Assembly: GCA_041673345.1 (NCBI GenBank)
Contig: JBAYXX010000008.1
Location: forward strand, 627 to 64,626
Source of the DNA: Kiritimatiellia bacterium
GTDB lineage: Bacteria > Verrucomicrobiota > Kiritimatiellia > RFP12 > UBA1067
Length of the DNA: 64,000 nucleotides
Direction: 5' to 3'
Every line of letters starts with the position of its first letter. The stretch's first letter is position 1. The notes below the pieces were generated by a model that was given only the letters and a program-made list of their open reading frames with translations, was not told the origin of the DNA and searched no databases. A program made the position numbers and the translations under genes. Shown piece by piece: positions 13,284 through 48,118 of the stretch.

Positions 13284-13336
13284 TGTTGACAGGTGCTTAT
13301 GATCTGTTGACAGATGATTATGATCTGTGCTATATT
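13284..13336 (+). promoter_or_regulatory. promoter with tandem 21-bp duplication containing TTGACA
   Basis: TGTTGACAGGTGCTTATGATC / TGTTGACAGATGATTATGATC; the second TTGACA is 18 nt from TATATT, which is preceded by TG-n. Confidence 0.6.
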
Positions 13337-13476
13337 TTTTTTAATTCGCAGGGATGGTGTCCACGCTCGGTTTGCTGATTAAAGATACAGGGCTGTAACT
13401 TCGCAAACCATCCTTCAAAGAAGTCACCGAGCAACGCGAGGTTGCCCTTGCCGTTTTGGAAAAGATTAGCTGTTCC

Positions 13477-13571
13477 AACGATGTTGCCGATAAACTACGT
13501 GCGTTGGCGGTCTCCGCCATTCTCGATCTACAGAAGGTGTTACAGTGAAACGACTTGTTATAATGATGAGT
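13477..13571 (+). repeat. 95-bp direct repeat, left copy
   Basis: 94/95 identical to 19044-19138; encodes the last 23 codons of the 16644..19115 gene and the first 9 codons of the 13545 gene. Confidence 0.95.
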
Positions 13572-14795
13572 ATAGTGGCATGGGGAGTCTTGCAGGCGGC
13601 AGAACTGTATCAATGCCCGGAAGCACCGGTTATTGATGGTATCGAAGATCCGTGCTGGAGTCAGGCGGAAGCTTTCCCTCTCGTTGATTGGAAAGACGGA
13701 AGCCCGTTGCATATGAAGACCGTTGCCCGGATTATGCGAGATAACCAGAGTCTCTATGTTTTCATGCACTGCCGTGAGGTCAATCTGGTGGAGGCGCGGG
13801 ACCAGGAAAAATTTAATCGGCACGATGCGCCGATTTGGAATAGTAACTGTGTAGAGTTCTTTTTTGACGTTCGCAATGACGGACGTGCCTTTTACCAATT
13901 CGTTGTTGATATCCACAACGATGCTGCAGACCTGCTGCACGATGATCCCGAGAGCCCGTCAAATGCGATTGACTGGAACGGTTTCTGGCGACATGCGGTT
14001 GGAACGTATGCTGACGGATGGACGGTAGAAATCGCAATTCCCTGGAGTACGCTAAAAATGCTTACAGGTCAACCTGTGCGTCTGGGCATGAATATTTCAC
14101 GTCCGCGACGCGTGGCTCCCTTTGAGCGTGGCTCCCTTGCACCGGGGGAAGGCGGTCTGTGCGATTTTTCCCAATTTCTGGTTTTCGATAACTTCAGTCT
14201 GGAAGAGTCGGAATTAACTGCTGATGTTTTGTCTAGTAAAGTTTTTCTTGGGTCAAACCGGATGACACTGCGCATGCGTAACCACACCGCACATAACTTG
14301 GTCGGACAACTTGAATTGACAGGTACTGCTTCGGATCATCGTGAAGTGCTGCGTATGGCGGTTCCGCTTGAAATGAAAGCCAACGAAGAACGCGACGTAT
14401 CGGTCGATTACCGGATTGACGAATCCGGACAGGTTATGCTGACGGCTGGTTTTATCCATGACAAGGAAAGATGCTTCTTAGCTCAAGCTGATTACATCTT
14501 TCGACAGCCACTTGAGTTTAACGACCCGCATCTGCTGGTTTTTGCCGGAGAAGATCATCCTGTCTACGTTCGTATTTTTTCGGATGCGCCGTCTTGGACA
14601 GTTGATGTAGAAATTCTCGACCATTTGGGTGAACGGTGCGCCAAAACGGATACGCTATCGCCGCCAGCCAATGCCTTTTTGGTGCTGCCGACCCGTCAGC
14701 TTGCGCCGGGTGCTTACACGGTACGGATCTTATTAAAGCACGGTAATAACCTGAGTAAGAACACAATGCCGCTCAAAGTGATCCCGCGACCGTGA
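13545..14795 (+). CDS. secreted CBM9/DOMON-like carbohydrate-binding protein with C-terminal Ig-like domains (copy A)
   Basis: Signal peptide; APVIDG, D..LYV..C, D.P.W...CVEFFFD, WTVEIAIPW are typical of the CBM9-like fold; paralog of 21633..22883. Confidence 0.75.
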   Translation: MKRLVIMMSIVAWGVLQAAELYQCPEAPVIDGIEDPCWSQAEAFPLVDWKDGSPLHMKTVARIMRDNQSLYVFMHCREVNLVEARDQEKFNRHDAPIWNSNCVEFFFDVRNDGRAFYQFVVDIHNDAADLLHDDPESPSNAIDWNGFWRHAVGTYADGWTVEIAIPWSTLKMLTGQPVRLGMNISRPRRVAPFERGSLAPGEGGLCDFSQFLVFDNFSLEESELTADVLSSKVFLGSNRMTLRMRNHTAHNLVGQLELTGTASDHREVLRMAVPLEMKANEERDVSVDYRIDESGQVMLTAGFIHDKERCFLAQADYIFRQPLEFNDPHLLVFAGEDHPVYVRIFSDAPSWTVDVEILDHLGERCAKTDTLSPPANAFLVLPTRQLAPGAYTVRILLKHGNNLSKNTMPLKVIPRP

Positions 14796-14844
14796 GGAAC
14801 ACTATTTTTTGACTGAGAATACGCAACAACTAAGGAGAAGAAAA

Positions 14845-16452
14845 ATGACCGTACGATTTTTTGCAACTCTTTGCACGGGGCTGCTTCTGACAGGTGTGGT
14901 AAACGGCGGCGTTTATGTCGCTCCCAACGGTCCCGGTCCAGCTCCCTTCGATAGCTGGGCGACAGCGGCATCGGATATTCAGACGGCCGTGACTGCTGCG
15001 TCGTCGGGTGATACGATTCTGATTTCCAATGGGGTTTATACGTTGACATCAACCATTTCCGTTGCCAAGAATTTGACCTTACGAGGAGTGCCAGCGAGTA
15101 CTCAACCGACGATTGACGGAAATCAACTTGTCCGCTGTTTAAAAGCGGAACAAGGTACAACTGTTTTTCTGGAAAACCTAAAAATCATCAAAGGTGTGGA
15201 TGCAGGCCTGAAAGGAGCGGGTGCGAGTCTAGTTAATGGAGGCGTCCGTGATTGTGTTTTTTCGAACAATGTCGCCACGTCGCACGGAGGCGGGCTCTAT
15301 ATCACCGGTTCCGGCACTGTAGAACGAACCACATTCATGTATAACGTTTCAGAATACGGCGGTGGCGGTCTCGCCTCGTACAGAAGTCCATTCCTGAGAA
15401 TCGACGATTGCCTTTTCCAGAAGAACTATGCGAAAGCGGCCGGCGGCGGCGGCTTGTCGCTGGATGGTGTGGCCGGTTTGGCGCTTGTCAACAGCCGGGT
15501 TCTTGATAATGTCACGACGAATCTGGGAAGCGGTGGCGGTATTTATGCCATCAGTACTCCCGTTTCGGAAACACCTAACTTAATCTCGAACTGCGTGATT
15601 GCCGGCAATATAGCGGGGTCTACAAACGAAACAGGCAATGGTTTTCATGGTGGCGGCATCCACATGCGTAGTGTAGGGAATTCCTATACGATTGCGAATT
15701 GCATTATTACGAACAATGCAGCCGCCAAACATGGGGGTGGAATCTCGCTTTGCGCGCCCTCTATGGTCAGGAATTGTTTGATTGCCTATAACCGGCAGAC
15801 ACCGGGAGTTGGCAATGCATACTATGGCGGCGGCGGTGTTTATATTGAACAAAATGGGCAATTGATCAACTGCCGGGTCAAGGGAAACAGCACGATTTAC
15901 GGAGGAGGGGGGGTCTTTAGCCCCAGCAGCAGCCTGATCCGCAATTGCCTGATTACCGACAACGTCGCGATGAATCCGGCAAACGGTGGCGGCATCCGCA
16001 ACCGTTTTGCCGGTCTCACAGTCGAGAACTGTACGATCACACGGAATGTATCAGGCGGTTATGGTGGCGGCCTGGATATTCGCGAAAAGGCCACGTTTTC
16101 AAACTGCATCATTTTCAGCAACGAATGTTCCTCTTCGGACAGTTTTCAAAACTACTACATAGCAGGAGCAGGCGCGAAGGAAACGGCTTTTTTGAACTGC
16201 TGTTTTACACCGGAACTTCACTCAGATTACGCTAACTATTCGTTCAGTAACATTCATGTCGATCCGCGCTTTGAGGGGGAAGACTATATTCTGCGCCCAT
16301 CCTCACCCTGCATCAACACCGGTACGAATCTGCTCTGGATGACGGGCGCGCTTGACTTGGCCAACTGCCCACGGATTGATAGAGGCAGTGGAAAAGTTGA
16401 CATGGGCTGCTTCGAGTATGTTCCGATAGGGACGGTGATACAGATTCAATAG
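14845..16452 (+). CDS. secreted right-handed parallel beta-helix (pectin-lyase-fold) repeat protein with choice-of-anchor-Q-like tail
   Basis: Repeated N-A...GGG / NC-I--N units; YILRPSSPCINTG...D--G--R---G-VDMGCFEY; ends GTVIQIQ; AAGGAG SD before ATG 14845. Confidence 0.8.
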   Translation: MTVRFFATLCTGLLLTGVVNGGVYVAPNGPGPAPFDSWATAASDIQTAVTAASSGDTILISNGVYTLTSTISVAKNLTLRGVPASTQPTIDGNQLVRCLKAEQGTTVFLENLKIIKGVDAGLKGAGASLVNGGVRDCVFSNNVATSHGGGLYITGSGTVERTTFMYNVSEYGGGGLASYRSPFLRIDDCLFQKNYAKAAGGGGLSLDGVAGLALVNSRVLDNVTTNLGSGGGIYAISTPVSETPNLISNCVIAGNIAGSTNETGNGFHGGGIHMRSVGNSYTIANCIITNNAAAKHGGGISLCAPSMVRNCLIAYNRQTPGVGNAYYGGGGVYIEQNGQLINCRVKGNSTIYGGGGVFSPSSSLIRNCLITDNVAMNPANGGGIRNRFAGLTVENCTITRNVSGGYGGGLDIREKATFSNCIIFSNECSSSDSFQNYYIAGAGAKETAFLNCCFTPELHSDYANYSFSNIHVDPRFEGEDYILRPSSPCINTGTNLLWMTGALDLANCPRIDRGSGKVDMGCFEYVPIGTVIQIQ

Positions 16453-16643
16453 CGTTGCAGTCTTCGTTTCATGCTCCGCGGGGAGCGGACGTCGAATACA
16501 GGGTTACTGGGTGTTTCGATACTGACCCCGATTAATGAAAATGTTAAACTGGCGACTTATTCGTGGACTTATTTGTAGTTGTTGATCGGCGGTTCTGTTG
16601 TTTTTCAAAACAGGGAGAGGCCTCATGTATGGAAGGAAAATCA

Positions 16644-19115
16644 ATGCGCACTTTCTTAGTATGGAATAAAAAAGAAGCGGTAAACGGAATAAAAACATTG
16701 TTTTGTATCAGCGTAGCGGTTTTTTCCCTATCGCTGATGGCATCGGAAAAAATTGTTCTCCACGATGAGTTTTACCCCGGGCTGCAGCGAAGCGTATGGA
16801 TTGTGACTGATAATCCCTCCGAACCGTGGCAACTTGAGGAGAAAATCCGTTTCTCGCATGAAAAGATGGGTTTTCGCTTTATATCCGGCAAAGCTCTGAT
16901 GCAGCGCGTGGATGTGGTAAATGCCGCCACGGGTGAGACAGTCTGGCAGACGAAAGCCTTTGGACAAACGCTCCAGACGCCAGTGCTTCCCGAAGCCGAT
17001 TACATCATTCGCGGCTCCGGTAAACCGGGCGCAGAAAAAGTGGTTATAGCCGTTGATTTTTCCCGGGACGGGTATCTGCTCCCCAGTTGGAAAATATCTC
17101 ATGCGGAGGTCAGCCAACTTCCAGAAGGTGGAATCGAACTTAAACCGTTGGCCCCTGATCAACATGCAGCTATTGACGGACGCATTTTAAAATTGTCTCG
17201 AGGACGCTATTACGAAGTTGAACTGGCGTTTGAAAGCGATCAGGTCAATGAGCTGCTGATGCGCTGTACGCAGCGGTTGGACGGCAAACGCCATTCCGAG
17301 ACGTCGACATTGACGACCGGAGTCGGTGAGCAGCAAGTCTGGCGAGTTGGCGTTGCGGCCATTTCCGTCGGAATGGGGGTCTCTATACAATCTTCCGGAG
17401 CGTTTCGTTTGCGCGCATTCACGGTCAAAGAGGTGCCGCCTCCTGCGCGTCGGAAGCAGGTGGGCGACAAGATTTTTACTTTTGAACCGCGCAATTCGGA
17501 ACCTGATCCACCCAACCCGGATATTTCTGGTCCTGTCGCCTTCAGGCGGCCACCCCGGCTGATTTATGAGGACAGTGTACCGCAACCGTTAGAGCTGACT
17601 GATGCGCTCGACACCTTCGCAACTCCGGGAACGTATGCTGTCTGGCATTTTGCTGTGCATAATCCGGATGCGCCGCGTCATTTGAAAGTATTGAACATCA
17701 GCGATCTGGAGGCGCAAGACGGCCATCGGATCCCCGCTGCCGCGCTGACTATCTCAACCGTCAAGTTCTGGGATTTTCCCCGTGGAACTTATACGTACTA
17801 CAACATTCCCGAGTTGATCTATCCGCAGGAGGAAGTGGAACTTGATGCAAACCGCAACCGTTTTTTCTGGATACAAACTCGATTGTCCAATACGTGCCCG
17901 GCCGGTGTCTATACCGGTATTGCCAGTGTTCAATGTGGCGAAACAGAACTTGACTTGTCTGTTCGGCTCCGTGTGCTGCCGTTTCGGCTGATGACGCCGA
18001 CGAACATGGTGTGGTCAGTTTACGGTGGCGCAAGACTTCCGCCGCAAAAATGGTACCCGGAAAAGCTTGTCGTCCGTTATCTGCGCGATATAATCGATTA
18101 CGGTGTTACATCGCTGGTCACGTCGCTGGGTACCGAAGACAGCGTGCGTAAATTCCAGTCGGAACGCCGACAGGCTGAGATGAAGGGACCAGTGATCGTT
18201 CGTAATTTTGCCGAGCGTTATGCTGCGAGGCGTTGCGGTATTACCGACAATTTTCCCGAGCGCTGGTTTGATCATCCAGAGATACGCCAGGCGTTTGTCG
18301 AATACTTGAAAGACTTCGACGACTGGTTCAAAAAATACGGCGGAGAAGGCTATGACGAATGGATGTACATGGGCGATGATGAGCCGCAGAACCACAGTAT
18401 GGAATCTGGTATTTGGCAGATTCGGCTGGCCCGCGAAGCAGGCATCCGCACAGCCTCCTGCGTTTACGCGCCACGTTACGTGACACAGATGGCTCCATGG
18501 CTGAACATCTCCTGCAACAGTTTTATTTCCCAGAGTGAAACGATGTTTGCCGATCTGATGAAGGTTGCCGCTGGCAAGCCCTTAGAATATTGGTATCTCG
18601 GCGGCGGCTGTTACTCAGGGCAGGAAGGCGGGGTGATGCCTGATCGCCTTGAAAGTGGTTTGATGAGTTTTAAACTCGGCGTAACAGGACACATCGCTTA
18701 CGGCTACCAGTCGTTTCGGCGGGGGCGGGGAGAAACTGAAGTCTCTCCCTATGATAACTTTACTCGCGGAAAATATAACGCCATGACTTATCCCGCCGAA
18801 GAGCCGACTGAAGCCAAGGTGACGGTTTTTTCGCTGGAATGGGAGGGAATCCGTGAGGGGATCGCTGACTATAAGTACTTATATACGTTGCGTGAGATGG
18901 GTAAGCAGGCACGCGGCCAGGGTCTGATCCGCGAGGCGGATGCGGCTCAAAAGAAAATTGAGGAAATTCTTGCCAGTGTTCCCTGGCGCGGTGACCAGCG
19001 CCATTATGTATCAGATAGCATTACAGAGAAGCAGTATTTCAATAACGATGTTGCCGATAAACTACGTGCGTTGGCGGTCTCCGCCATTCTCGATCTACAA
19101 AAGGTGTTACAGTGA
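16644..19115 (+). CDS. secreted GH123-like / DUF4091 protein (copy A)
   Basis: TPGTYAVWHF N-terminal GH123-like domain, YMGDDEP acidic pair, C-terminal SLEWEGIREGIADYKY; start chosen at ATG 16644 (SD GGAAGG), ATG 16629 is possible. Confidence 0.72.
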   Translation: MRTFLVWNKKEAVNGIKTLFCISVAVFSLSLMASEKIVLHDEFYPGLQRSVWIVTDNPSEPWQLEEKIRFSHEKMGFRFISGKALMQRVDVVNAATGETVWQTKAFGQTLQTPVLPEADYIIRGSGKPGAEKVVIAVDFSRDGYLLPSWKISHAEVSQLPEGGIELKPLAPDQHAAIDGRILKLSRGRYYEVELAFESDQVNELLMRCTQRLDGKRHSETSTLTTGVGEQQVWRVGVAAISVGMGVSIQSSGAFRLRAFTVKEVPPPARRKQVGDKIFTFEPRNSEPDPPNPDISGPVAFRRPPRLIYEDSVPQPLELTDALDTFATPGTYAVWHFAVHNPDAPRHLKVLNISDLEAQDGHRIPAAALTISTVKFWDFPRGTYTYYNIPELIYPQEEVELDANRNRFFWIQTRLSNTCPAGVYTGIASVQCGETELDLSVRLRVLPFRLMTPTNMVWSVYGGARLPPQKWYPEKLVVRYLRDIIDYGVTSLVTSLGTEDSVRKFQSERRQAEMKGPVIVRNFAERYAARRCGITDNFPERWFDHPEIRQAFVEYLKDFDDWFKKYGGEGYDEWMYMGDDEPQNHSMESGIWQIRLAREAGIRTASCVYAPRYVTQMAPWLNISCNSFISQSETMFADLMKVAAGKPLEYWYLGGGCYSGQEGGVMPDRLESGLMSFKLGVTGHIAYGYQSFRRGRGETEVSPYDNFTRGKYNAMTYPAEEPTEAKVTVFSLEWEGIREGIADYKYLYTLREMGKQARGQGLIREADAAQKKIEEILASVPWRGDQRHYVSDSITEKQYFNNDVADKLRALAVSAILDLQKVLQ

Positions 19116-19138
19116 AACGACTTGTTATAATGATGAGT
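19044..19138 (+). repeat. 95-bp direct repeat, right copy
   Basis: Matches 13477-13571 with one synonymous CAG/CAA difference. Confidence 0.95.
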
Positions 19139-19188
19139 GGAGGCTTAGCAAAAGCCGCTAAATACATTTAATCGTGAAGGAAATCAAT

Positions 19189-21633
19189 ATGTACCGAACA
19201 TGGGAAATCACGTTAGCTTCTTGGCTGAAGCGTGGGATGATGCTTGTAACGGCAGGTTTTTGTTTATCTGCATTGGCGTCGGAATCGATTGTTTTGCAGG
19301 ATGCCTTCCGTCCTTCGTTGCAACGGAGTTGGTGGTGGGTTGTTGATTCGCCGACAAAACCATGGCAGCGAGAAATGCGGCTTCAATTTGAGCAAGAGCA
19401 GATGCGCTTTCGTTTCATTTCGGGGCATACGTTGCTACAGAGCCTGGAGATTGTTGATGTGCTCACCGAGAAGACAGTCTGGGAAACGCAGTCGTTTGAA
19501 AGGGCTTTATTGACACCGGTTTTGCCGGAAGCCGAATATGTGGTGCGTTGTCGTGGCCGTATGGGAGGTGAGAAGGTTTCTGTAGCCGTTAATTCGTATC
19601 GAGACGGTTATCTCTTACCAACCTGGAAACCGAGTGACGTTGACATTGCCCATACCGTTGGCGGTGGAATTACGCTGACACCACAGACTCCCGGAAAAGC
19701 TGGTTCCATTTGCGGACATATTTTTAAGCTTGTGCCCGGTCGTTTTTATACGATTGATCTCAAATTTGAGTCCAACCAAGTGAATGAATTTTTCATGCGT
19801 TGCACGCAGCGCAAGGATGGGGCACGACGCGCTAAAACGGCGACACTGACAACTGGAGTTGGTGATGAGCTGAGTTGGAGCGTTGATGTTGCGGCCGTTG
19901 CCGCTTCGATCTCCCTTACGCTGGAGGTTTCAGATGCGTGCCATTTGCATGAATTGATCCTGAGAGAGGTTCCACCGCCGTCCGCTCGTAAAGAGGTGGC
20001 TGGCAAGACATTCACTTTCGAGCCTCGCAATTCAGAGCCAGAACCATTGAATCCCCGTCTCAGCGAACCCATTGCTTTTAGTCGTTCACCTCGGCAAACG
20101 TTCGAGTCGAGTATACCGCAGGATTTCGAACGAATTACAGATCTCAATACTTTTGTGACGCCGGGAGAATATGCCGTCTGGCATTTTACCGTTCACAATC
20201 CAAATGAATCGCGACGTTTGGAGCGATTAACAATTAGTGCGTTGGAAAGCGAGGATGGGCGCAAAATTCCAGCGTCAGACGTGAACATTTCTCACGTTCA
20301 ATTTTGGGATTATCCGAGTGGCCCCTATACCTACTACAACATCCCTGAGTTGATTGAGCCGCAGGAGTCTGCTGATCTCGGTGCAGGTGAAAATCGTATT
20401 TTCTGGCTTCAGTCTCGAATTTCTGAAACGACTCCGTCCGGTGTTTACACAGGAACAGCGCATGTCATGTGCGGGAAGACTGAACTTGAACTTCCTGTAA
20501 GATTGCGTGTTTTACCTTTTACATTACAGACACCGACAAATATGGTTTGGGCCGTCTATTCACGTCAGCACGTCCGTCCGCAAAGCCAATATCCGAAAAA
20601 ACTTGCCGTTCGCTACTATCGCGATATGGTCGATTACGGCGTTACTGCTTTGCACCGGACGCTAGGCTCGGAAGCGAGTGTGCGAATTTTTCAATCGGTG
20701 CGCCGCCAAGCTGAAATGAAAGGCCCGGTGATCGTTTACGGCATACGGGCTGAACATGTTGCGATGGAAAGGTGCGGCGTAACAAACGCTGTTCGTTGGT
20801 TCAACAATCCGGAAGTCCGTCAGACTTTTGTTGACTTTGTGAAGGAATTTGATGGCTGGTTTAAGAAGTATGGTGGCGAAGGCTATGAAGATTGGTATTA
20901 CATGGGCAATGATGAGCCTCATATCCGCAGTATGGAGGAGAGTGGTTGGCAGAACAGGCTGGCCCGCGAGGCGGGAGTCCGCACGGCCTCCTGCGTCTAC
21001 GCGCCGCGCTATGTTCGTGAACTCTCTCCCTGGCTTGATCTCTCCTGCAACAGCTTCATTTCGCAGAGTCCTGTGATGCGCGATGAATTGCTGGAAGTTG
21101 CTGAAGGTAAGCCCCTCGAATACTGGTATCTTGGCGGTGGCGTCTATGGGGGCCAAGAGGGCGGTCTGATGCCTGACCGGCTAGATAGCGGCTTTATGAG
21201 TTTCAAGCTTGGCGTGACTGGGCATCTTTCTTATACCTATCAGGCGTTTTCCAGCCGATCCAGTCCGGATCCCTATGACAATTTCACTGCCGGAAAATCC
21301 TATGGGATGACCTATCCCGCTCGGAATCCGACGGAAGAGAAAGTCAGTGTTTTCTCGCTGGAATGGGAAGGCATTCGTGAGGGAATCGTCGACTATAAGT
21401 ATCTTTATACGTTGCAGAAATTGGAGGCGCAAGCCCGTGCAAAGGGCTTTATCGAAGAAGCCAATGCTGCGCGAACAACACGGGAAGCGGTTCTTGCTCA
21501 CGTTCCCTGGCGTGATGACCGCAACTATATTTCGGATGGTATCACTCAGGTCCAAATGTTTAACAATGAAATTGCCGACAAGCTTCGTGCGCAAACGGCA
21601 CAGGCTATTCTTACTTTACTGGAGGTTTTATAA
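19189..21633 (+). CDS. secreted GH123-like / DUF4091 protein (copy B)
   Basis: Full-length paralog of copy A; YMGNDEP, SLEWEGIREGIVDYKY; stop overlaps the next start (TAATG). Confidence 0.72.
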   Translation: MYRTWEITLASWLKRGMMLVTAGFCLSALASESIVLQDAFRPSLQRSWWWVVDSPTKPWQREMRLQFEQEQMRFRFISGHTLLQSLEIVDVLTEKTVWETQSFERALLTPVLPEAEYVVRCRGRMGGEKVSVAVNSYRDGYLLPTWKPSDVDIAHTVGGGITLTPQTPGKAGSICGHIFKLVPGRFYTIDLKFESNQVNEFFMRCTQRKDGARRAKTATLTTGVGDELSWSVDVAAVAASISLTLEVSDACHLHELILREVPPPSARKEVAGKTFTFEPRNSEPEPLNPRLSEPIAFSRSPRQTFESSIPQDFERITDLNTFVTPGEYAVWHFTVHNPNESRRLERLTISALESEDGRKIPASDVNISHVQFWDYPSGPYTYYNIPELIEPQESADLGAGENRIFWLQSRISETTPSGVYTGTAHVMCGKTELELPVRLRVLPFTLQTPTNMVWAVYSRQHVRPQSQYPKKLAVRYYRDMVDYGVTALHRTLGSEASVRIFQSVRRQAEMKGPVIVYGIRAEHVAMERCGVTNAVRWFNNPEVRQTFVDFVKEFDGWFKKYGGEGYEDWYYMGNDEPHIRSMEESGWQNRLAREAGVRTASCVYAPRYVRELSPWLDLSCNSFISQSPVMRDELLEVAEGKPLEYWYLGGGVYGGQEGGLMPDRLDSGFMSFKLGVTGHLSYTYQAFSSRSSPDPYDNFTAGKSYGMTYPARNPTEEKVSVFSLEWEGIREGIVDYKYLYTLQKLEAQARAKGFIEEANAARTTREAVLAHVPWRDDRNYISDGITQVQMFNNEIADKLRAQTAQAILTLLEVL

Positions 21634-22883
21634 TGAAATCGATCCTACTGACTGCTCTTCTTTTTCTCATCTGTCCATTGATGGCGGCTGAGTTATATAA
21701 GTGTTCAAGTCCGCCGTTGATCGATGGGGCAGAGGATACAATTTGGCAAGAAGCGAGCGTATTTCCGTTGTTCAATATCAAGGCGGACCAGCCACTCGTT
21801 ATGGAAACGGTTGCTCGCATCATGTACGATGATCAAAATCTCTACGCCTTTGTTCATTGTCGCGAGGTCAATCTGGTTGAAGCCCGAGATCAGATGAAAT
21901 ACACCCGACACGACGCACCCGTTTGGGAAAATGGCTGCGTGGAGTTTTTTCTTGATGTTCGTAACGACGGACGCGCTTATTATCAGTTTGTCGTCGACGT
22001 TCACGGCAGTGCTGCGGACTTGCTGCGATACGACCCCGATGGTCCCCGAAAAGGGATAGAATGGAACGGTTTTTGGCGTCGTGCAGTCGGCACAAGCGCT
22101 GATGGCTGGACAGTTGAAGTTGCCATTCCTTGGCGTAGCCTGAACATGACACCTAGCGACCAGCGCCTGGGGTTGAATATTTCGCGCGTACGGCGCATTT
22201 CGCCCTTTGAGCGTGGCACGTTGGCTGCGGGAACGTCTTCAATTAGCGATTTGGCCCGTTTCCTGATTTTTGAGAACATCCGTCTTGAGGCACCTGAGGT
22301 CTCCGCCGAGATTCAGCCCGGCGCAGTTTTCCTCGGGAAAAACAGGATGCGGCTGCGGGTCCAGAATCATACTGAAGCGCCAGTTTCTGGTCAGTTGCAA
22401 CTCGTCGGCACAGCCGTGGCGGTTGCCGAAGTGATTATGCGGGAAAATCTGCCGCTGGAGCTGAAGGCTGGTGAGACGCGCGATGTGGCGGTTGATTACC
22501 GGAGCGACACACTGGGCCGAGTACAGGTGACCGCTAACTTAGTTCAGAATCAATCGGTACAGTTCCTCGATGTCGCAGATTATGTCTTCCGCCAGCCGAT
22601 CGAACTGAATGATCTTCATCCGCTTGCATTCGCCGGCAAAGATCATCCGGTTTACGTTCGGATATTCACTGATGCTTCCGAGTGGACGGTGGATGTCACG
22701 ATTAGTGACCGTCAAGGCAGCGTCTGCGCGGTGACCGAAAACCTCAGACCTTCTGCGAACGCTTTTCTGATGCTTCCAACGGCTCGTCTGGAGCCAGGTG
22801 ATTATAGCGTCAGGATTACGCTCAGACATGGTGGGGCGATCAGTGAAAGCGATGTGCCACTCACTGTGATTCGCCAGCCTTAG
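21633..22883 (+). CDS. secreted CBM9/DOMON-like protein (copy B)
   Basis: Same length (416 aa) and colinear with 13545..14795. Confidence 0.75.
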   Translation: MKSILLTALLFLICPLMAAELYKCSSPPLIDGAEDTIWQEASVFPLFNIKADQPLVMETVARIMYDDQNLYAFVHCREVNLVEARDQMKYTRHDAPVWENGCVEFFLDVRNDGRAYYQFVVDVHGSAADLLRYDPDGPRKGIEWNGFWRRAVGTSADGWTVEVAIPWRSLNMTPSDQRLGLNISRVRRISPFERGTLAAGTSSISDLARFLIFENIRLEAPEVSAEIQPGAVFLGKNRMRLRVQNHTEAPVSGQLQLVGTAVAVAEVIMRENLPLELKAGETRDVAVDYRSDTLGRVQVTANLVQNQSVQFLDVADYVFRQPIELNDLHPLAFAGKDHPVYVRIFTDASEWTVDVTISDRQGSVCAVTENLRPSANAFLMLPTARLEPGDYSVRITLRHGGAISESDVPLTVIRQP

Positions 22884-22992
22884 ATCGTTCGGTGCCGATG
22901 TTACTTTCGCTTGGAGGAGTGATAGCGATATACTTTACAAGTTTGATACGGGAAAATTCAGCTGACAGTTAATACATCAACAGGAGCATGTT

Positions 22993-23412
22993 ATGAAAAG
23001 AAAAGAGACGTTCATTATTTTTATCGGATTAGCCTTGGCAGTCTCGAGTCGTGGAGAGGTTTACGTTGCCCCGAATGGACCCGGTCCCGCTCCTTTTGCA
23101 AGCTGGGCGACAGCTGCGCCGGATATTCAGTCGGCTGTTACAGCGGCCGCCCCGGATGACACGATCTTGATTTCGAATGGTGTCTACGGGGGTGGCGGCA
23201 TCCGTATTCGTTACGATTTGGGGTTAAGGATTGAGAACTGCACGATTACTGGTAATTCTGCCGATAAGCCGGGCGGCGGTATTAATTTTTATGCTCCTAC
23301 CACCTTAGTTAACACCATCATCTATGGTAATACCTGCTCTTACTCGTCGACTTACAACAATTATTACCAACGTTACGATGGGACGAATGCGGTTTTCGAG
23401 AGCTCATTATAA
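22993..23412 (+). pseudogene. internally deleted and 3'-truncated beta-helix protein (copy B)
   Basis: N-terminus VYVAPNGPGPAPF-SWATAA-DIQ matches 14845..16452, then joins in frame to GGGIR...ENCTIT; about 310 codons and the C-terminal tail are missing. Confidence 0.8.
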
Positions 23413-23487: not shown

Positions 23488-24411
23488 ATGATAAATCGGC
23501 GTGAATTTCTTGAAAAGACAGCGGCACTTGCCGGAGTAAGCACATTGCCGGCATGGGGTCCGTTGGGCTGCGCAACGCAAGCCCGCTACCCAGCTTACGG
23601 GAATACTCTGCAGGACCGTCTCTGGATGTGGGGACATGACTCGGGGGTTTATGACGGAGCAAAGGGAAAATATAACATCCCGCTGAGCCCCCCGATCAGT
23701 ATGGCCGACGGCATCAAATACATGGGGATACCGAACGTCTGTGTGATTCGTCACAGAGTCGGGAACGACGAATACAACAAACAGTTCAAGGACGTGAAGC
23801 GGATTGCATGGACCCTCTCCATGGGCTCCAATCAGTCTTATCAGAGCTTGAAAAACTATGTCTTCGGTTTACGGGATACGATGCCCAACCTAACCGGCTA
23901 TTATTTAGATGACTTTTTCCGTTTCGGCGACAAGCCTGGGTTTGACCAGAATTCCGAGACTGTCCCCGCGCCAGCCTCACTTTCCTTGGATGAGCTAAAG
24001 CAGCTCCATGACGAAACGAAGGCCTACAAGCGCCGCCTTGATCTGGCAATCGTTTTGTACACCCATATGCTGTGCCCGGCGATCAAGCCTTACATGAAAT
24101 ACACCGATACTGTCTCGCTCTGGATCTGGAGCGGTAGCGACATCCAGAAAATTGAGGATAATTTCAAAAAATATCGTTCTCTGGTTCCTGACAAACCGAC
24201 CCTTCTCGGCATCTACATGTGGGACTTTGGGGGCAGAAAAGAGCTGAGTACAGAGTTTATGGGCAAACAACTTGACTATGCCTACAAGCTGTACAAGCAG
24301 GGACAAATCGAGGGGATGATTTTCCACTGCACACCGCTTTGCAACAAAAATCTTGCGGCTGTCGAATATGCGAAAAAATGGATTGCCGAGCATGGCGGGG
24401 AAAGCCGGTAG
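23488..24411 (+). CDS. Tat-exported hypothetical protein, possible (beta/alpha)8 fold
   Basis: NRREFLE Tat motif, possible lipoprotein Cys; GYYLDDFF and LGIYMWDFG motifs; GGAG SD. Confidence 0.65.
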   Translation: MINRREFLEKTAALAGVSTLPAWGPLGCATQARYPAYGNTLQDRLWMWGHDSGVYDGAKGKYNIPLSPPISMADGIKYMGIPNVCVIRHRVGNDEYNKQFKDVKRIAWTLSMGSNQSYQSLKNYVFGLRDTMPNLTGYYLDDFFRFGDKPGFDQNSETVPAPASLSLDELKQLHDETKAYKRRLDLAIVLYTHMLCPAIKPYMKYTDTVSLWIWSGSDIQKIEDNFKKYRSLVPDKPTLLGIYMWDFGGRKELSTEFMGKQLDYAYKLYKQGQIEGMIFHCTPLCNKNLAAVEYAKKWIAEHGGESR

Positions 24412-24425
24412 AAAAAATAACCGCT

Positions 24426-27227
24426 ATGCAATACTTCACGCCAATAACTACTCACACATTAGAACTGTCGAGGAAAGCCGTTTTGAAAACTGCCCTTGCG
24501 GTAAGCCTTTTACTAACAGCCAGCGGAGCCGATGCCGCAGTTTCAATGCGCACCATCGACGAAACCTGGCCCCCGCCTCCAGGGGAGGAGAGCTGGACAT
24601 TTGTAGAGGAGCTTAAGCAGCCTCTGCCCTTTGTTTTGTTCTGGAAGGAAGGCAGCTTGCCGCAGCCGGACCAGATCGATCTACGTGGTGGTTTGACTGT
24701 GAAACAAGCTTTCCCAGATGCGAAGGGCGTTCTTAAAACAGCGTATGCCGACCTCGACAACTTTATCGCCTTTGCGAAATTCGGCGGAGAGGGCAAACTG
24801 TCCATCATAACCGAAAAGGCCGCGACAGATGTCCCTGAGGCCTATTCGATCGCGATCTCGCCGGAAGGTATCCGACTGTTGGCCAGCGACACCGAGGGTA
24901 TTCGGCGTGCGATTTTCCACCTCGAAGAGTTGATCTCCACCGCAGACGGCCCCTTTCTCAACTCCGGAGTCATCCGGAAAAAGCCGTGGCTGAAGAATCG
25001 CATCACGCGCTGTTTCTTTGGGCCGATCAAGCGTCCCCCGCTGAACCGCGACGAACTGATGGATGATGTTGATTACTATCCCGATGCCTACCTCAACCGC
25101 CTGGCGCACGAAGGCGTGAACGGACTGTGGCTGAGCATCGAGTGGAAGGACATCACCAAGACCTCCTTCCGCGAGCCGAGCCCCGACATGGAGAAAAGGC
25201 TCGCGAAACTGCGCCGGACCGCCGAGAAATGCGGGCGCTACGGAATCAAACTGTGGCTCTACTCAAACGAGCCGGTGGGCTTCCATTCTGAGGACGATCC
25301 CATGCGTAAGGCGCATCCCGAGATGGTCGGAGCGGGCTGGGGCGCACGCCACTTTGTCTGCCCGAATTCCGAGGCCGGGCAGAAGTTCATCTATAAATCG
25401 ACCCGCTGGATCTTCTCCCAGGTTCCAGGGTTGGGCGGTATGATCAACATCTCGCTGGGCGAGGGCGGCTCCTCTTGTCTTGATTCGGTGGGTGTCCAGC
25501 GGGATGCGCGTCCGGCTTGTCCGCGCTGCGCTCTTGTTCCGAACTGGCAGACTCTCGCGGCAGGCCAGGGCGCGATGGCGAGAGGAGTCAAGGATGGCAA
25601 TCCGAATGCGGAGTACATCTGCTGGCTCTACATGCCGTCGTGGAAACCCTTTGCCCCTTGGGTGTATGAGCTTGGCTCCCACATGCCCAAGGATGTGACG
25701 CTGCAAGTGAACTTTGAATCAGGTGCTGTCAAGTACCAGTTGGACCGTCCGCGGGTGGGCGGCGACTACTGGCTGTCGTTCATCGGACCGTCCGAGCGTT
25801 TTGCTCGGATCGCCGGACAAGCGGCGGCCAACAAGACACCGATGGCTGCGAAGCTCCAGGTGGGATGCTCGCACGAAGCGGCGACCATTCCGTTTATGCC
25901 CGTGCCCTCGCTTCTCTACCGTAAGTACAAGGAGATGCCCAGCATGAACGTCACCTCTGTGATGCAGTGCTGGTACTTCGGCAACTATCCCGGCGTGATG
26001 AACCGTGCGGCAGGGCGGCTGGCTTTTGAAGACTTCTCGAAGACAGAGGAGGATTTCCTACAGACGTTGGCCCGTCCAGAGTGGGGCGGAGAGGCGGATC
26101 TCGTTGTGCGGGCATGGGGTCACTTCTCGGCAGGGTTCCAGCATTTCCCGCTCTCAACGCGCTTCCAATGGTGGGGTCCTATGCATGCGGCGCCAGTCTG
26201 GCCGCTGCATCTGAAGCCAGCTCTCAAACAGCTGCAGCCCACCTGGCTGGTCGGTGGCCCCTGCGGCGATGCCATTGGTGAAGTGCTAGACAACCACACC
26301 CTTGATGAGACCGTTATTTTGTCGCGGCAAATGTCGGAGGAGTGGAACAAGGGCGTTGCTCTCATGAAATCAATCGAACCCAAATTCAAGGGAAACCGTG
26401 AGCGTCTTCTTGATATCGGCCTGACAGAAGCGCTAGGCATCCAATTCGCGAGCGCGTACAACATGCAGAACTTCTACCTTATGCGCCGTCAGCTGTTCGA
26501 CCTCTCCCCTACTGACGCCTTGCAGCGTTTGGCAGAGATGGAAGAGCTCGTTCGCCTGGAAATCAAGAACAGCGAACGGCTGACAGTGCTCTGTGCTGCG
26601 GATTCGCGCCTAGGCTTCCACTCAGAAGCCGAGCGGCATCAGTATTCCGTCACGCGGCTCAAATGGCGCGTGGAGGTACTGAACGATCTGCTCGCGACCG
26701 AGTTCCCTGAATACCGGAGTGCCTTCCAGGCAGGGCAACAGGTGTCGCGGTTCGCCGAGGGGCGCGCGGTTTACACCTGCGGTGCGGGATGGGTCGATTG
26801 CAAGACCTACCAATGGCAGGCAGAGCGCGCTGGGGGTGATCTTGTCCTGAAGGTGGAGATGAAGGCTCCAAAGTCGGCAGGGTCCTTTACCCTCTATCTC
26901 TGCGATCCGTTTGTGACCGCACACTATTGGGAGATCAACCTCGCGACCTCTGGCTCCGTATCGGATTCCCGCGCAATCGGCTTGCGGGCTGAACCATACA
27001 CAACACCTACTGGCGCGAACGGCGTGACGCTGCGCATCCCGTCAGCTGGGTTGCAGGCCTTCGACCCTTCGGGGCGCGCGTATGCCTTCAACATCTTCAA
27101 CAGCGGCCTCGGCGCGGACAACTGGCCCACAGGCATGGGCGAATCAGACCTCAGCACCTACCGCCTGGCCCTCAGCCGCTTCAAACCCCAAAAAATGGGC
27201 TACATCCGCACAACCCCGTCCAAATAA
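24426..27227 (+). CDS. large secreted protein with GH20-type N-terminal (zincin-like) domain and unassigned catalytic-like domain
   Basis: PEAYSIAISPEGIRLLASDTEGIRRAIFHL; RK-type Tat-like leader; start set at ATG 24426. Confidence 0.65.
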   Translation: MQYFTPITTHTLELSRKAVLKTALAVSLLLTASGADAAVSMRTIDETWPPPPGEESWTFVEELKQPLPFVLFWKEGSLPQPDQIDLRGGLTVKQAFPDAKGVLKTAYADLDNFIAFAKFGGEGKLSIITEKAATDVPEAYSIAISPEGIRLLASDTEGIRRAIFHLEELISTADGPFLNSGVIRKKPWLKNRITRCFFGPIKRPPLNRDELMDDVDYYPDAYLNRLAHEGVNGLWLSIEWKDITKTSFREPSPDMEKRLAKLRRTAEKCGRYGIKLWLYSNEPVGFHSEDDPMRKAHPEMVGAGWGARHFVCPNSEAGQKFIYKSTRWIFSQVPGLGGMINISLGEGGSSCLDSVGVQRDARPACPRCALVPNWQTLAAGQGAMARGVKDGNPNAEYICWLYMPSWKPFAPWVYELGSHMPKDVTLQVNFESGAVKYQLDRPRVGGDYWLSFIGPSERFARIAGQAAANKTPMAAKLQVGCSHEAATIPFMPVPSLLYRKYKEMPSMNVTSVMQCWYFGNYPGVMNRAAGRLAFEDFSKTEEDFLQTLARPEWGGEADLVVRAWGHFSAGFQHFPLSTRFQWWGPMHAAPVWPLHLKPALKQLQPTWLVGGPCGDAIGEVLDNHTLDETVILSRQMSEEWNKGVALMKSIEPKFKGNRERLLDIGLTEALGIQFASAYNMQNFYLMRRQLFDLSPTDALQRLAEMEELVRLEIKNSERLTVLCAADSRLGFHSEAERHQYSVTRLKWRVEVLNDLLATEFPEYRSAFQAGQQVSRFAEGRAVYTCGAGWVDCKTYQWQAERAGGDLVLKVEMKAPKSAGSFTLYLCDPFVTAHYWEINLATSGSVSDSRAIGLRAEPYTTPTGANGVTLRIPSAGLQAFDPSGRAYAFNIFNSGLGADNWPTGMGESDLSTYRLALSRFKPQKMGYIRTTPSK

Positions 27228-27291
27228 CAAAATGAAATTTCACCATACAAATCCACAAAGCAAAAATGTAGAAAAAGGAGAAACCGACACT

Positions 27292-28812
27292 ATGAAAACT
27301 ATGACCTTTATCTTTGTCCTGTTTGCGGTTTCTTTTTTCTTTCCTATCAAGGCTGGCCATGCGGCCCAGCTTTATGCGGGAGTCGCCAAGGCCGATATAA
27401 CGGATTATACAGCGGGTCCCGTCAATGATCCGCTGTATGTCAAAGCCTTGGTACTGAAGAACAGTTCTAATACTGTTGTGCTGATTACGGTGGATGCGGT
27501 GGCCATCGGGAAACTCGGCAGGATCAGCAACGATTTTCTTCCAAACATACGCGCGCAACTGCAGAAGGACCTGAACATCCCGCCTTCGCATGTCCTGGTC
27601 AATGCCAGCCACTGCCATGGCGTGGTGCGTACAGACACCGCGCGGCTTGCAGTGCAGACCGTTGAGGCTGCCTGTAGCAATTGGGTGCCTGTGACGGTCG
27701 GCACTGGTATCGGCCGCGAGACCCGGATTATGGAAAATCGCCGCCTTAAGCTGAAGAACGGAGAGGAGGCGGATGTCCGCCGCGCTTACGCGCTGCCGCC
27801 GGACGAGGAGGTTGTTGCCAGCGGACCGGTTGATCCGGATATCGGCGTACTCAGGATCGACAAGAGAGACGGAAAACCGCTGGCAGTGGTTTACAACTTC
27901 GCATGCCATCCCATCATGGGGGTTCCGAGCGGAGGAAACACAGCGGACTATCCTGGGTTCGCTTCCAGTGTGATCGAAGAGACGATCGGGGACGGCGCTG
28001 TCGCGCTGTTTTTACAGGGATGCGCAGGAGACATCAACCCGGCGTTGTACAAAACAGACCACCAACTTCATGATGCGGAATCGCTGGGCAACCTGCTGGG
28101 CCTCAGCACAATGCGGGCAATGAAAAAAATAGAGACTCAAGATGATGGCGAGCTTAAGGTTATCAATGAAGTGATCGCGTTGCCGCGAGGAACGGATCTG
28201 GCACAACGAATCTCACGGCTGGAGAAAGCGCAGGCACGGCTGGTTCAATCTCTGAAAGGTACCAGCCTTAACCTCAAGGCCTTTATTCCATTGTATGTGC
28301 AATACGCCCTGTCCAGTAATTATCCCTCCTATTACTCTTACCGGTATCTGCAAAATCAGTCGCCTGGCAGAGATGAACTGACTAAACTCGACACCAAAAA
28401 CCGGGCGAACATGGAGAGCTACATTCAGAACGTGCATGTCATGGAACGCCTGACGAGAATTCAAGAAAACCTTCGTTTACTAAAGATGCATCACGCGCAA
28501 AACATGGCTTCCGGTCAGAAAACAGTCGATGCCGAAATCGTTGTCCTGAAAATCGGAGACTTTGTATTGGCCACGTTTCCAGGAGAGCCCTCCGCTGAAA
28601 TAGGACTGAACATCAAGCGCCACTCGCCCTATCCGTTCACCTTCGTGTCCGGCTGCTGCAACGGTTACCTCTACTATGCTCCGACCGCGCAGCAGCGCAA
28701 CAATCCGGGTTTTGCTCAAGAGGATTGCGATTGCCTTTTGGCGCCGGAATGGCAGAAGGCGTATGAAGAAAAGGTCGCGCTTCTCTTGGAAAAATTGTCA
28801 CATAAAAACTAG
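27292..28812 (+). CDS. secreted neutral/alkaline ceramidase-like amidohydrolase
   Basis: DPLYVKALVL, VNASHCHG, NFACHP, QGCAGDINP, FPGEPSAEIG, GYLYYAPT; AAGGAG SD before ATG 27292. Confidence 0.75.
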   Translation: MKTMTFIFVLFAVSFFFPIKAGHAAQLYAGVAKADITDYTAGPVNDPLYVKALVLKNSSNTVVLITVDAVAIGKLGRISNDFLPNIRAQLQKDLNIPPSHVLVNASHCHGVVRTDTARLAVQTVEAACSNWVPVTVGTGIGRETRIMENRRLKLKNGEEADVRRAYALPPDEEVVASGPVDPDIGVLRIDKRDGKPLAVVYNFACHPIMGVPSGGNTADYPGFASSVIEETIGDGAVALFLQGCAGDINPALYKTDHQLHDAESLGNLLGLSTMRAMKKIETQDDGELKVINEVIALPRGTDLAQRISRLEKAQARLVQSLKGTSLNLKAFIPLYVQYALSSNYPSYYSYRYLQNQSPGRDELTKLDTKNRANMESYIQNVHVMERLTRIQENLRLLKMHHAQNMASGQKTVDAEIVVLKIGDFVLATFPGEPSAEIGLNIKRHSPYPFTFVSGCCNGYLYYAPTAQQRNNPGFAQEDCDCLLAPEWQKAYEEKVALLLEKLSHKN

Positions 28813-38194: not shown

Positions 38195-39625
38195 TCACTC
38201 CCCCGTTTGTAACCGACTGAACATGCCCAGCAATTGTTCGATCATCTTGGGAGCAGCCTCAAATTCGAGTCGGCTGGTGCCGAGCCATGTTTCGTAGCCA
38301 CCCAGTTTGTGCTGCTCGACAGTCGGTAAGTAACCGAAATAACCGTGCGCCAAAGAGACCACAAACGTGGGTTTAAAGGGGCTCCGAGCTTTTAACTCCA
38401 ATCCGATTTCGCTGAAGACCTCAACCGGCATAGTTGCGATGCCAACCTCGCCGATACGAAAGGTCTGCAACGGAAAACTCCAGCGTTCCGGCAATGTGGC
38501 CATTTCTAAGGCACGGCTAGCGTAACTCTTCTCCATCACGTTTGGTTTGGCATTAGGATCATTTTTAGCAAGAACATCTTTGGCCCATTCGATCTGTTCC
38601 TGATTCGGACGACGGAGCTGCAGATTGATCTGCTCAAATGAAACACTGAGCGGTACGCTGTCGTGCCATTGGATCGTTTTATAGGCAGCATGGACTGCCT
38701 GAGCCACATCGTTAGCGACCTCCCGCATCCTCACATAAGGCTCTCTTTTCACGGGTTTTTTGGTGAAATCAATATTGTTGATATTGCCACTCGTGCCGTT
38801 GCTCATTATGGCCACAAACGGCGGGTCTTGGTGTTCGGCCTCCAGCAACTGTCGCATACGGTCGTCAAACATTCCAAAGTAATCAGCTGAGATGTCTGCA
38901 CCGCGTACGCCACCAACATAATGCAGTGAATAATTGGACAGCAGCCCAATGGGGCGGCCTTCAAGCGACTTTACAGCAATCAAGCAGACTTGGGGATCCG
39001 TCGGCCCTGCTGGTCGATCCAGATTGACATTGCCCTGCCCTGGATTCATCCTCACCAGATCGTTCGTGCTTCCAAAGGGATTCATCGGCATCGTGCCGGG
39101 TTTCATGTACCAGCGGCGGCAAAAAACATGCTGCGGCACCGACGCAGTCGCCCAACCGATGCGGGCTGGCTCGAGGTTGTTGATCGCGCAACGCACTGCA
39201 TCGGCGATGCGGCGCACCATAAATTTCTGGTAGTCATCCAACTCAGGTTTATGGTTCCAGCGATCACCAATTGCGCTGATCGCAGAGTGCGAGTGTACGG
39301 CGGAAACGAGTATATTCGCGGCTGGCATCCCAGTCTCTTTTTCGACCCGCCGCCTCGCCTCATCGCTTACCGCCCCCGAAATACCCAACACGTCGCACAC
39401 AACAAACGCAACGCGTGTCTTGCCGTTATCCAAAACAAGACACTTCGCCCACAGATCGTCATGCACATGCGTGGCCGGATAGGGGCTAAACCCACCAATA
39501 ATCATTGCGCCCAAGTCTGGTGTGATATTACCCTTTGCCACACCCGCACGAAATGTGTCGGCTGCACTAACAAACATTCCGAAAACCATCATGATACTTG
39601 CTGCGATCATTCCTAACCGTTTCAT
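38195..39625 (-). CDS. secreted neutral/alkaline ceramidase-like amidohydrolase
   Basis: Signal peptide; HDDLWAKCLVL, SAVHSHS, NYSLHY, NGTSGNINN, PVEVFSEIG, GYLPT...GGYET. Confidence 0.78.
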   Translation of the reverse strand: MKRLGMIAASIMMVFGMFVSAADTFRAGVAKGNITPDLGAMIIGGFSPYPATHVHDDLWAKCLVLDNGKTRVAFVVCDVLGISGAVSDEARRRVEKETGMPAANILVSAVHSHSAISAIGDRWNHKPELDDYQKFMVRRIADAVRCAINNLEPARIGWATASVPQHVFCRRWYMKPGTMPMNPFGSTNDLVRMNPGQGNVNLDRPAGPTDPQVCLIAVKSLEGRPIGLLSNYSLHYVGGVRGADISADYFGMFDDRMRQLLEAEHQDPPFVAIMSNGTSGNINNIDFTKKPVKREPYVRMREVANDVAQAVHAAYKTIQWHDSVPLSVSFEQINLQLRRPNQEQIEWAKDVLAKNDPNAKPNVMEKSYASRALEMATLPERWSFPLQTFRIGEVGIATMPVEVFSEIGLELKARSPFKPTFVVSLAHGYFGYLPTVEQHKLGGYETWLGTSRLEFEAAPKMIEQLLGMFSRLQTGE

Positions 39626-48048: not shown

Positions 48049-48118
48049 GTTGTTTGTCTCCTCTTTGTTTGTTGTTTTCATGTTATTTGCCCCCGCGATC
48101 AAATAAGCAGCACTGTCA

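Follow-up and report, generated by a model that had tools for sequence, protein, structure and literature searches.

Enzymes of the glycoside hydrolase family 123 (GH123) type act on glycolipids terminated by N-acetylgalactosamine (GalNAc), on mucin-type glycans and on some exopolysaccharides, and the family has recently been enlarged (PMC11087588, PMC13738339). The enlarged membership takes in NgaP, CpNga123 (5fqe), BvGH123 (5l7r), NgaCa (8k2f), NgaDssm (8k2j) and NgaLy (8k2n). In these enzymes a DE motif provides the 2-acetamido group's stabilizer and the acid/base, and nine residues (NgaLy D95, W115, D327, E328, Y392, G427, W431, Y466 and R478) are invariant over all GH123 groups (PMC11087588; Sumida et al. 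2024). Carbohydrate-binding modules (CBMs) are rare in the family, with two GH123 entries in CAZy carrying a CBM9 (PMC13738339). Here we analyse a 64,000-nucleotide stretch of DNA from a Kiritimatiellia bacterium (contig JBAYXX010000008.1; hereafter the window), which contains two copies of a gene pair encoding a GH123-like protein, C, and a CBM9-like protein, A, together with a gene, B, for a β-helix protein.

We consider it probable that C and A constitute a split two-gene unit, in which a remote, exported GH123-type enzyme with a proposed N-acetylhexosamine-cleaving activity is accompanied by a translationally coupled, exported protein made of a CBM9 domain and immunoglobulin (Ig)-like domains. 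The unit is not a categorically new system; it is a split and as yet uncharacterised form of a known type of enzyme, and its CBM9-type partner is conserved.

The genes are arranged in the order A1-B1-C1-C2-A2-B2, all on the forward strand. C2 (19174..21633, 819 amino acids; likely start ATG 19189, giving the 814-residue protein P0001) is followed by A2 (21633..22883, 416 amino acids), whose start overlaps the C2 stop by 1 nucleotide (TAATG) and whose ribosome-binding motif, GGAGG, lies inside the final C2 codons. In the other copy A1 (13545..14795, 416 amino acids) comes first and C1 (16563..19115) last, the latter being an 850-amino-acid open reading frame (ORF) with a likely start at ATG 16644 that would give an 823-residue protein (P0005). 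On inspection of the translations, the N-termini of all six ORFs resemble Sec signal peptides, as a preliminary description made from this DNA had also noted. That description saw two diverged copies of every component. Such copies exist for C (59% identity over 808 amino acids) and for A (57% over 417 amino acids) but not for B, because B2 is a 139-amino-acid relic.

C is a remote relative of the GH123 glycosidases

Searches of the PDB, Pfam and NCBIfam with the single C2 sequence returned nothing usable, so that family profiles were needed. A collection of 5.8 billion proteins yielded a set of 14 close C homologues, none of which has a functional name; the database names seen for this branch are all 'hypothetical protein'. 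The C family profile matches NgaCa in the PDB at 1e-7. Run against a library of 1.84 billion representatives, it matches 4079 clusters (50% identity) at E ≤ 1e-3, of which 244 reach E ≤ 1e-30; most of the 4079 align to the core alone (profile positions ~280–800). A wider profile of 61 relatives matches NgaDssm at 1.2e-26 over positions 249–689, as well as NgaCa, BvGH123, CpNga123 and the Niabella enzyme, and aligns the DEP of the C family with ADEP of NgaDssm and MDERP of BvGH123. Among these 61 relatives Pfam recognizes GH123_N_2 in 40 and GH123_cat (PF13320, formerly DUF4091) in 18; in C2 it matches GH123_N_2 alone, and the 19.6 bits of this match do not reach the cut-off of 27. C marks an unannotated GH123-related branch, and the wider unannotated group is large (about 4000 clusters at E ≤ 1e-3).

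The AlphaFold2 model of C2 (predicted local distance difference test score, pLDDT, 80.9) has a β domain (residues 34–262), a poorly ordered conserved linker, a β-sandwich (295–441), an eight-stranded (β/α)8 barrel and a helical tail. The first two of these parts correspond to the extra region that the preliminary description had placed ahead of the GH123-like core, and are an all-β domain of ~230 amino acids and a linker of ~30 amino acids. The rest of the model follows the GH123 domain layout of N-terminal β-sandwich, (β/α)8 barrel, DUF4091 region and helical C-terminal domain. In a Foldseek search of the PDB with this model the top 20 matches are all GH123-type (E ~6e-19 to 2e-13; target-normalised template modelling (TM) scores 0.57–0.67).

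In the C2 model D575 and E576 (codons 20911..20916) stand directly after strand 569–572, just after barrel strand 4. The surrounding motif reads YMGNDEP in C2 and YMGDDEP in C1, where the Asp-Glu codons are at 18378..18383 (D606-E607 in the numbering of the 850-residue ORF); the preliminary description had already pointed to this acidic pair, as GNDEP and GDDEP. Both residues are conserved to 90% or more in the alignments of 14 and of 61 sequences, and P577 is also nearly invariant over the 61 sequences, which have a mean identity of 22%. The nine GH123-invariant residues were mapped by motif context on the C alignments, rather than by a direct alignment with NgaLy, and by this mapping six of the nine are kept in C (W406, D575, E576, Y653, G678 and Y709).

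Profile searches, Foldseek and the alignment of the DE pair agree in making C GH123-like, as had been suggested, and on sequence grounds we place it on a remote branch within the enlarged GH123 family or beside that family as its sister. It shares with the described enzymes the β-sandwich, the barrel, the DUF4091-type region, the helical tail and a DE at the same aligned position. It differs from them in being only 10–17% identical in structural alignments and below the GH123_cat threshold, in its additional ~230-amino-acid N-terminal β domain, and in having its binding module encoded by a separate, translationally coupled gene.

A is a CBM9-type protein

Pfam assigns CBM9_1 to both A proteins, at 42.1 and 47.2 bits (cut-off 23.4), the CBM9-like domain covering approximately residues 28–185. 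There are 17 close A homologues in the 5.8-billion-protein collection, and the resulting 18-sequence family profile matches CBM9-2 of the Thermotoga maritima xylanase Xyn10A (1i82) at 4.6e-11. W98 and E104, which are invariant in the A family, align with the Trp and Glu of the CBM9-2 motif NPWEQDSVE. In CBM9-2 these two and a second Trp near the C-terminus are the ligand-clamping residues; the alignment ends before the second Trp. In the AlphaFold2 model of A2 (pLDDT 86.2) the Foldseek match is a CBM9 of Caldicellulosiruptor (7nwn, target-normalised TM score 0.71), and the tail consists of two Ig-like sandwiches that resemble transglutaminase or macroglobulin β-barrel domains.

As modelled, A has a true CBM9 fold with two Ig-like domains behind it, and no catalytic fold. 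A catalytic role for A was rejected on this model, and Pfam shows no catalytic domain in it, which bears out the earlier view of A as non-catalytic. CBM9_1 presumably belongs to the DOMON-like clan, and a haem-binding DOMON-type protein was considered as well; this candidate was rejected, as the possible ligands M57 and H124 are not conserved in the distant homologue from L003 while the Trp and Glu of the sugar site are invariant. A has the fold, the above-threshold CBM9_1 match and the invariant Trp and Glu of described CBM9 modules such as 1i82 and 7nwn. It differs from them in being not a xylanase module but a secreted protein in its own right, to which two Ig-like domains are added and which has a GH123-like partner. 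A conserved Arg-rich face on its CBM9 domain (NISRVRR..PFER) could, speculatively, be compatible with an anionic ligand.

C and A are paired across genomes

An A homologue follows C in all 13 of the distinct loci that have downstream DNA (L001, L002, L003, L005, L006, L007, L017, L019, L020, L023, L024, L025 and L028). Co-location in other genomes, on which the preliminary description had staked its proposal, is thus found throughout. The pairing extends to branches that are 30–35% identical to C2 (L003, L025 and L028). In 10 of the 13 loci C and A overlap by 4 nucleotides (ATGA, GTGA or TTGA; nine are from the junction table and L005 is from gene calls), and in the closer relatives the codons for L-E-V/A at the C-terminus of C contain a GGAGG.

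Maximum-likelihood trees of C and of A have every supported clade in common. In both trees C2/A2, L006 and L007 form a group to which C1/A1 is external, and the pair therefore appears to have been duplicated, or acquired twice, as a unit before the C2/A2, L006 and L007 lineages split.

The named genome records that carry the C family are all metagenome-assembled genomes of Lentisphaerota, and recognition of the C–A pair improves the annotation of glycan-degrading loci in this phylum. Lentisphaerota are not known to have Sus-type systems. Because the named relatives all belong there, the comment in the preliminary description that the unit works without SusC/D carries no information.

Genes that neighbour the pair at other loci encode GH20-like, DUF4838, MFS, GntR and small prepilin-like proteins, and this company suggests amino-sugar glycans as targets. 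A protein of ~215 amino acids recurs next to or near the pair (L002:6490-7125, L005:4386-5036, L017:2600-3238, L023:1481-2128 and L001:15067-15747); in L005 it has a weak prepilin-type N_methyl match, and it is absent from the locus in the window.

Split and fused forms of the same enzyme

Four proteins of 1332–1374 amino acids in the representative library (P0074, P0092, P0098 and P0129) combine GH123_N, GH123_cat and CBM9_1 in one chain according to Pfam, and in P0129 the CBM9 part starts exactly where mature A starts. A further fused paralogue, P0182, is encoded in the same genome as the window by a 1369-amino-acid ORF (contig C39:16108-20217; locus L029:1109-5218). It consists of a galactose-binding-like domain, a GH123-like core that carries an insertion of one domain, CBM9_1 and an A-like tail, and it keeps the DE pair as GTDEA. 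The A profile aligns with P0182 residues 960–1339 over A residues 23–398 (hhalign probability 99.6%, E 2.4e-24).

Since these relatives encode the same parts as one chain of 1330–1374 amino acids, the C–A pair is, on sequence evidence, best described as the split version of a longer multidomain glycosidase. The fused proteins have the same core and the same CBM9 with its tail, the A profile aligns over its mature length and the DE pair is retained. They differ from the pair in being single chains, ~25–30% identical to C and A, with a linker of ~45 amino acids between the parts, a galactose-binding-like N-terminal domain and an insertion in the barrel. The two CBM9-bearing GH123 entries in CAZy (PMC13738339) fit these fused relatives. 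The fusions are the strongest evidence that C and A would act on the same substrate. The occurrence of a core and a CBM9 both split and fused, even within one genome, constitutes a natural experiment on tethered versus free binding modules.

An analogous arrangement is that of LacL and LacM of lactobacilli, a GH2 β-galactosidase that is a proven heterodimer and is split within the catalytic protein. The likeness lies in adjacent or overlapping genes for parts that other species have in one chain. The differences are that the C/A split falls between the catalytic core and the binding module, and that the association of C with A is putative.

Copy 1 has been permuted

The preliminary description saw translational coupling of C and A in both copies. 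This is correct for C2 and A2, where the junction is TAATG, but the GTGA of copy 1 joins A1 to a relic of C1 instead of to the intact gene. At 13545–13548 this GTGA overlaps the start of A1 with the stop of a 30-codon relic ORF (13456..13548), whose last 69 coding nucleotides (13477–13545) are, together with the stop, a duplicate of the C1 3′ end. An identical GTGA at 19112–19115 terminates intact C1, but behind it lies only a 26-nucleotide relic of the A1 start. The ORF at this place (19112..19171, 19 codons plus stop), which overlaps the C1 stop, reads MKRLVIMMS and continues into unrelated sequence. The GTGA beside intact C1 therefore precedes only a relic of A1, and that of A1 adjoins a relic of C1, so that C1 and A1 are no longer coupled.

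Both relics belong to a 95-bp direct repeat with copies at 13477..13571 and 19044..19138 (forward strand, 94 of 95 positions identical), which consists of the last 69 coding nucleotides of C1, its stop and the first 26 nucleotides of A1. The first copy runs on into intact A1 and the second closes intact C1. A DNA alignment finds no similarity to C1 upstream of 13477; the idea that the whole of 13341–13548 is a C1 remnant was rejected because DNA homology begins only at that position.

L006, the closest relative with all three genes, has the order C-A-B. The ancestral order of copy 1 was therefore C1-A1-B1, later circularly permuted to A1-B1-C1, and the row is not the pair of C-A-B units that had originally been described. 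Tandem duplication with loss of the outer halves, or template switching, may have led to the permutation. Under this history the unit would have been duplicated long ago (57–59% identity), copy 1 would later have been permuted, leaving the 95-bp repeats at its junctions, and B2 would have decayed.

We also considered whether the A1-B1-C1 order with its repeats is an artefact of metagenome assembly and the true genome reads C1-A1-B1. The genome is a draft of 312 contigs, 88.8% complete, and common assembler k-mers are longer than 95 bp, so that a repeat of this length can be mis-threaded. However, the path of the contig is the only linear one that uses all four junctions, the alternative leaving 5.6 kb as a free circle; one base distinguishes the two copies of the repeat, and unique sequence lies beyond both outer junctions. 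We judge an artefact to be very improbable, and retain the permutation.

A proposed division of labour between C and A

Linkage, agreement of the trees and the existence of fusions support, at the level of sequence, a functional unit of an enzyme and its binding partner. C would be an exported, retaining β-N-acetylhexosaminidase of ~800 amino acids, most likely specific for GalNAc, that uses substrate-assisted catalysis through D575 and E576 on an exported or host-type glycan. A (~415 amino acids) would be translated directly behind C, usually by way of a 4-nucleotide stop/start overlap and a ribosome-binding site in the last codons of C. As translation is coupled, it would be made in amounts roughly equal to those of C, and it would serve in glycan binding or targeting. 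Contextual support for this mechanism comes from elsewhere in the window, with the three tandem classical GH123 genes and the ceramidase-like, DUF4838 and FGE-sulfatase-like genes described below. Homology, fold, conservation of the DE pair, linkage, fusions, co-divergence and rearrangement are read directly from the genes and models, whereas the substrate, the site of export and any physical association of the two proteins are inferred.

Several findings weigh against parts of this proposal. Neither C1 nor C2 has a Pfam GH123_cat match at E < 0.01 or any NCBIfam match. By the motif-context mapping three of the nine GH123-invariant residues differ in C: D95 corresponds to E387 and W431 to Y682 in the close clade, and R478 falls on E/Q725. 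The substrate of C may therefore differ from that of the known GalNAc-releasing enzymes. The ~45-amino-acid linker of the fused relatives agrees better with a tethered module than with a tight interface. Coupling has been lost in copy 1 with both genes intact, and tight co-translation is thus not indispensable. At E ≤ 1e-50 no C homologue occurs in any of the 40 nearest species (among them 5 from the same genus and 19 from the same family), and of 400 species drawn from across the phylum only 7, each belonging to another family, have one, a patchy distribution that suggests transfer or frequent loss.

The substituted residues and the missing GH123_cat match raise the question of whether C is a hexosaminidase. 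C might instead be a GH123-fold enzyme shifted to another, non-acetylated or anionic, sugar, or a non-hydrolytic binder, and the Arg-rich conserved face on the CBM9 of A could suit anionic glycans. The replacement of the W431 equivalent by Tyr is confined to the close clade, Trp being retained in P0014 and the wider relatives, and an invariant R730 lies near the E/Q725 that occupies the R478 position. Because D575-E576-P577 is nearly invariant and aligned with the catalytic DE, the equivalents of the conserved Tyr (Y653) and Gly (G678) are retained and GH20-like genes occur among the neighbours, we think that a change of this kind is unlikely, and we keep hexosaminidase activity as the proposed function.

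How closely C and A cooperate is a separate matter. They could form an obligate, stoichiometric heteromeric enzyme, in which A shapes the substrate site or C depends on A to fold or to stay stable. In keeping with this, the 4-nucleotide overlaps and the ribosome-binding site embedded in C persist in deeply diverged loci, the two trees are congruent, relatives have both parts in one chain, and the two families are as rare as each other (14 and 17 close homologues in the collection of 5.8 billion proteins). Such dependence sits less well with the long linker of the fused relatives, with the possession of its own signal peptide by each protein and with copy 1, which is uncoupled and has B1 between A1 and C1. 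An obligate complex is conceivable, if somewhat doubtful.

At the other extreme, C and A would be mere operon neighbours with independent roles, A capturing glycans as a free or surface protein in the manner of SusE/F and C working as a soluble enzyme. The separate signal peptides and the tolerance of the permuted copy 1 agree with independence, and both stand-alone CBM9_1 proteins and CBM9 domains in other large proteins are common in the genome of the window. The invariant adjacency of C and A, the preserved stop/start overlap and fusions that span the full length of A are, on the other hand, difficult to account for unless C and A share a function on one substrate, and we regard independent roles as quite improbable. 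Our preferred reading is the functional split unit described above, with A as a binding or targeting partner.

A bolder version would make this the first two-subunit GH123-type glycosidase. A, docked on C, would complete the substrate site there, C and A together would define a new GH123 subfamily directed at a GalNAc-containing, possibly anionic, host glycan or exopolysaccharide, and fission and fusion of C and A would be a recurrent switch between untethered and tethered forms in Lentisphaerota. We offer this version very tentatively, and think that it probably goes too far.

The β-helix gene is facultative

B1 (14809..16452, forward strand, 547 amino acids; likely start ATG 14842) is predicted to form a right-handed β-helix with GGG repeats of the polymorphic membrane protein (PMP) type. 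One Chlam_PMP repeat is above the Pfam threshold (27.1 bits, cut-off 20.6), NosD-like and beta_helix matches are partial, and choice-of-anchor Q is below its cut-off (21.1 against 25). B1 shares GGG-type repeats with the PMP-repeat and choice-of-anchor Q β-helix proteins of bacteria of the Planctomycetota–Verrucomicrobiota–Chlamydiota (PVC) group. It differs from the chlamydial type of PMP autotransporter in being a β-helix with PMP-like repeats and no autotransporter barrel; Pfam and NCBIfam detect no autotransporter domain in it, and there is no PDB sequence match.

B2 (22993..23412, forward strand) is a relic of the same gene with internal and C-terminal deletions. Its residues 1–66 and 69–138 match residues 1–66 and 388–457 of the intact 539-amino-acid orthologue in L006, so that it has lost ~320 internal and ~80 C-terminal residues. 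The L006 orthologue, which follows the C–A pair, is 53% identical to B1. Among the loci that bear the pair, B is found only in the window and in this close relative. A role as fixed third member was rejected for this reason, and the three-protein module of the preliminary description reduces to a two-gene core to which B is a recurrent but facultative neighbour. It would represent an add-on of one sub-lineage.

In a more distant branch, a B-like PMP-repeat gene (L026:7402-8814 and L027:5990-7402; 28% identical to B1) follows the C-like P0024. There is no CBM9 gene beside P0024 in these two loci, and two GH42-like genes precede it.

Upstream region and neighbouring genes

The best-scoring promoter-like site of the region lies upstream of the entire co-directional gene row, at 13307..13336 on the forward strand (TTGACA, an 18-nucleotide spacer and TATATT, with 11 of 12 matches to the consensus and a TG before the −10 box); the assignment is a consensus match only. 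Its −35 box is supplied by the second unit of a 21-nucleotide tandem duplication at 13284-13325 (units TGTTGACAGGTGCTTATGATC and TGTTGACAGATGATTATGATC). Upstream of the row, on the opposite strand, are rpsA and tyrS. Directly 3′ of B2 there is a gene for a 307-amino-acid protein with a Tat-type leader (RREFL; 23488-24411, forward strand), followed by a 962-amino-acid ORF (24339-27227, forward strand). Neither has a Pfam or NCBIfam match, and the 307-amino-acid protein also has no PDB sequence match.

Elsewhere, the window holds three tandem classical GH123 genes on the reverse strand (46273-48255, 48119-49906 and 49925-52066). The third of these has a GH123_cat match at 1.6e-90 and an F5/8 type C domain; the first two give much weaker matches and their ORFs overlap by ~137 nucleotides. 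A DUF4838 gene and a gene for a protein similar to formylglycine-generating enzyme (FGE)-sulfatase are also present. Two ceramidase-like genes (27082-28812, forward strand, and 38195-39625, reverse strand) match part of the N-terminal domain of neutral/alkaline ceramidase; one match, at 28.7 bits, falls short of the Pfam cut-off (32.1) and the other, at 50.2 bits, exceeds it, and their surroundings are rich in genes for GalNAc-type glycosidases.

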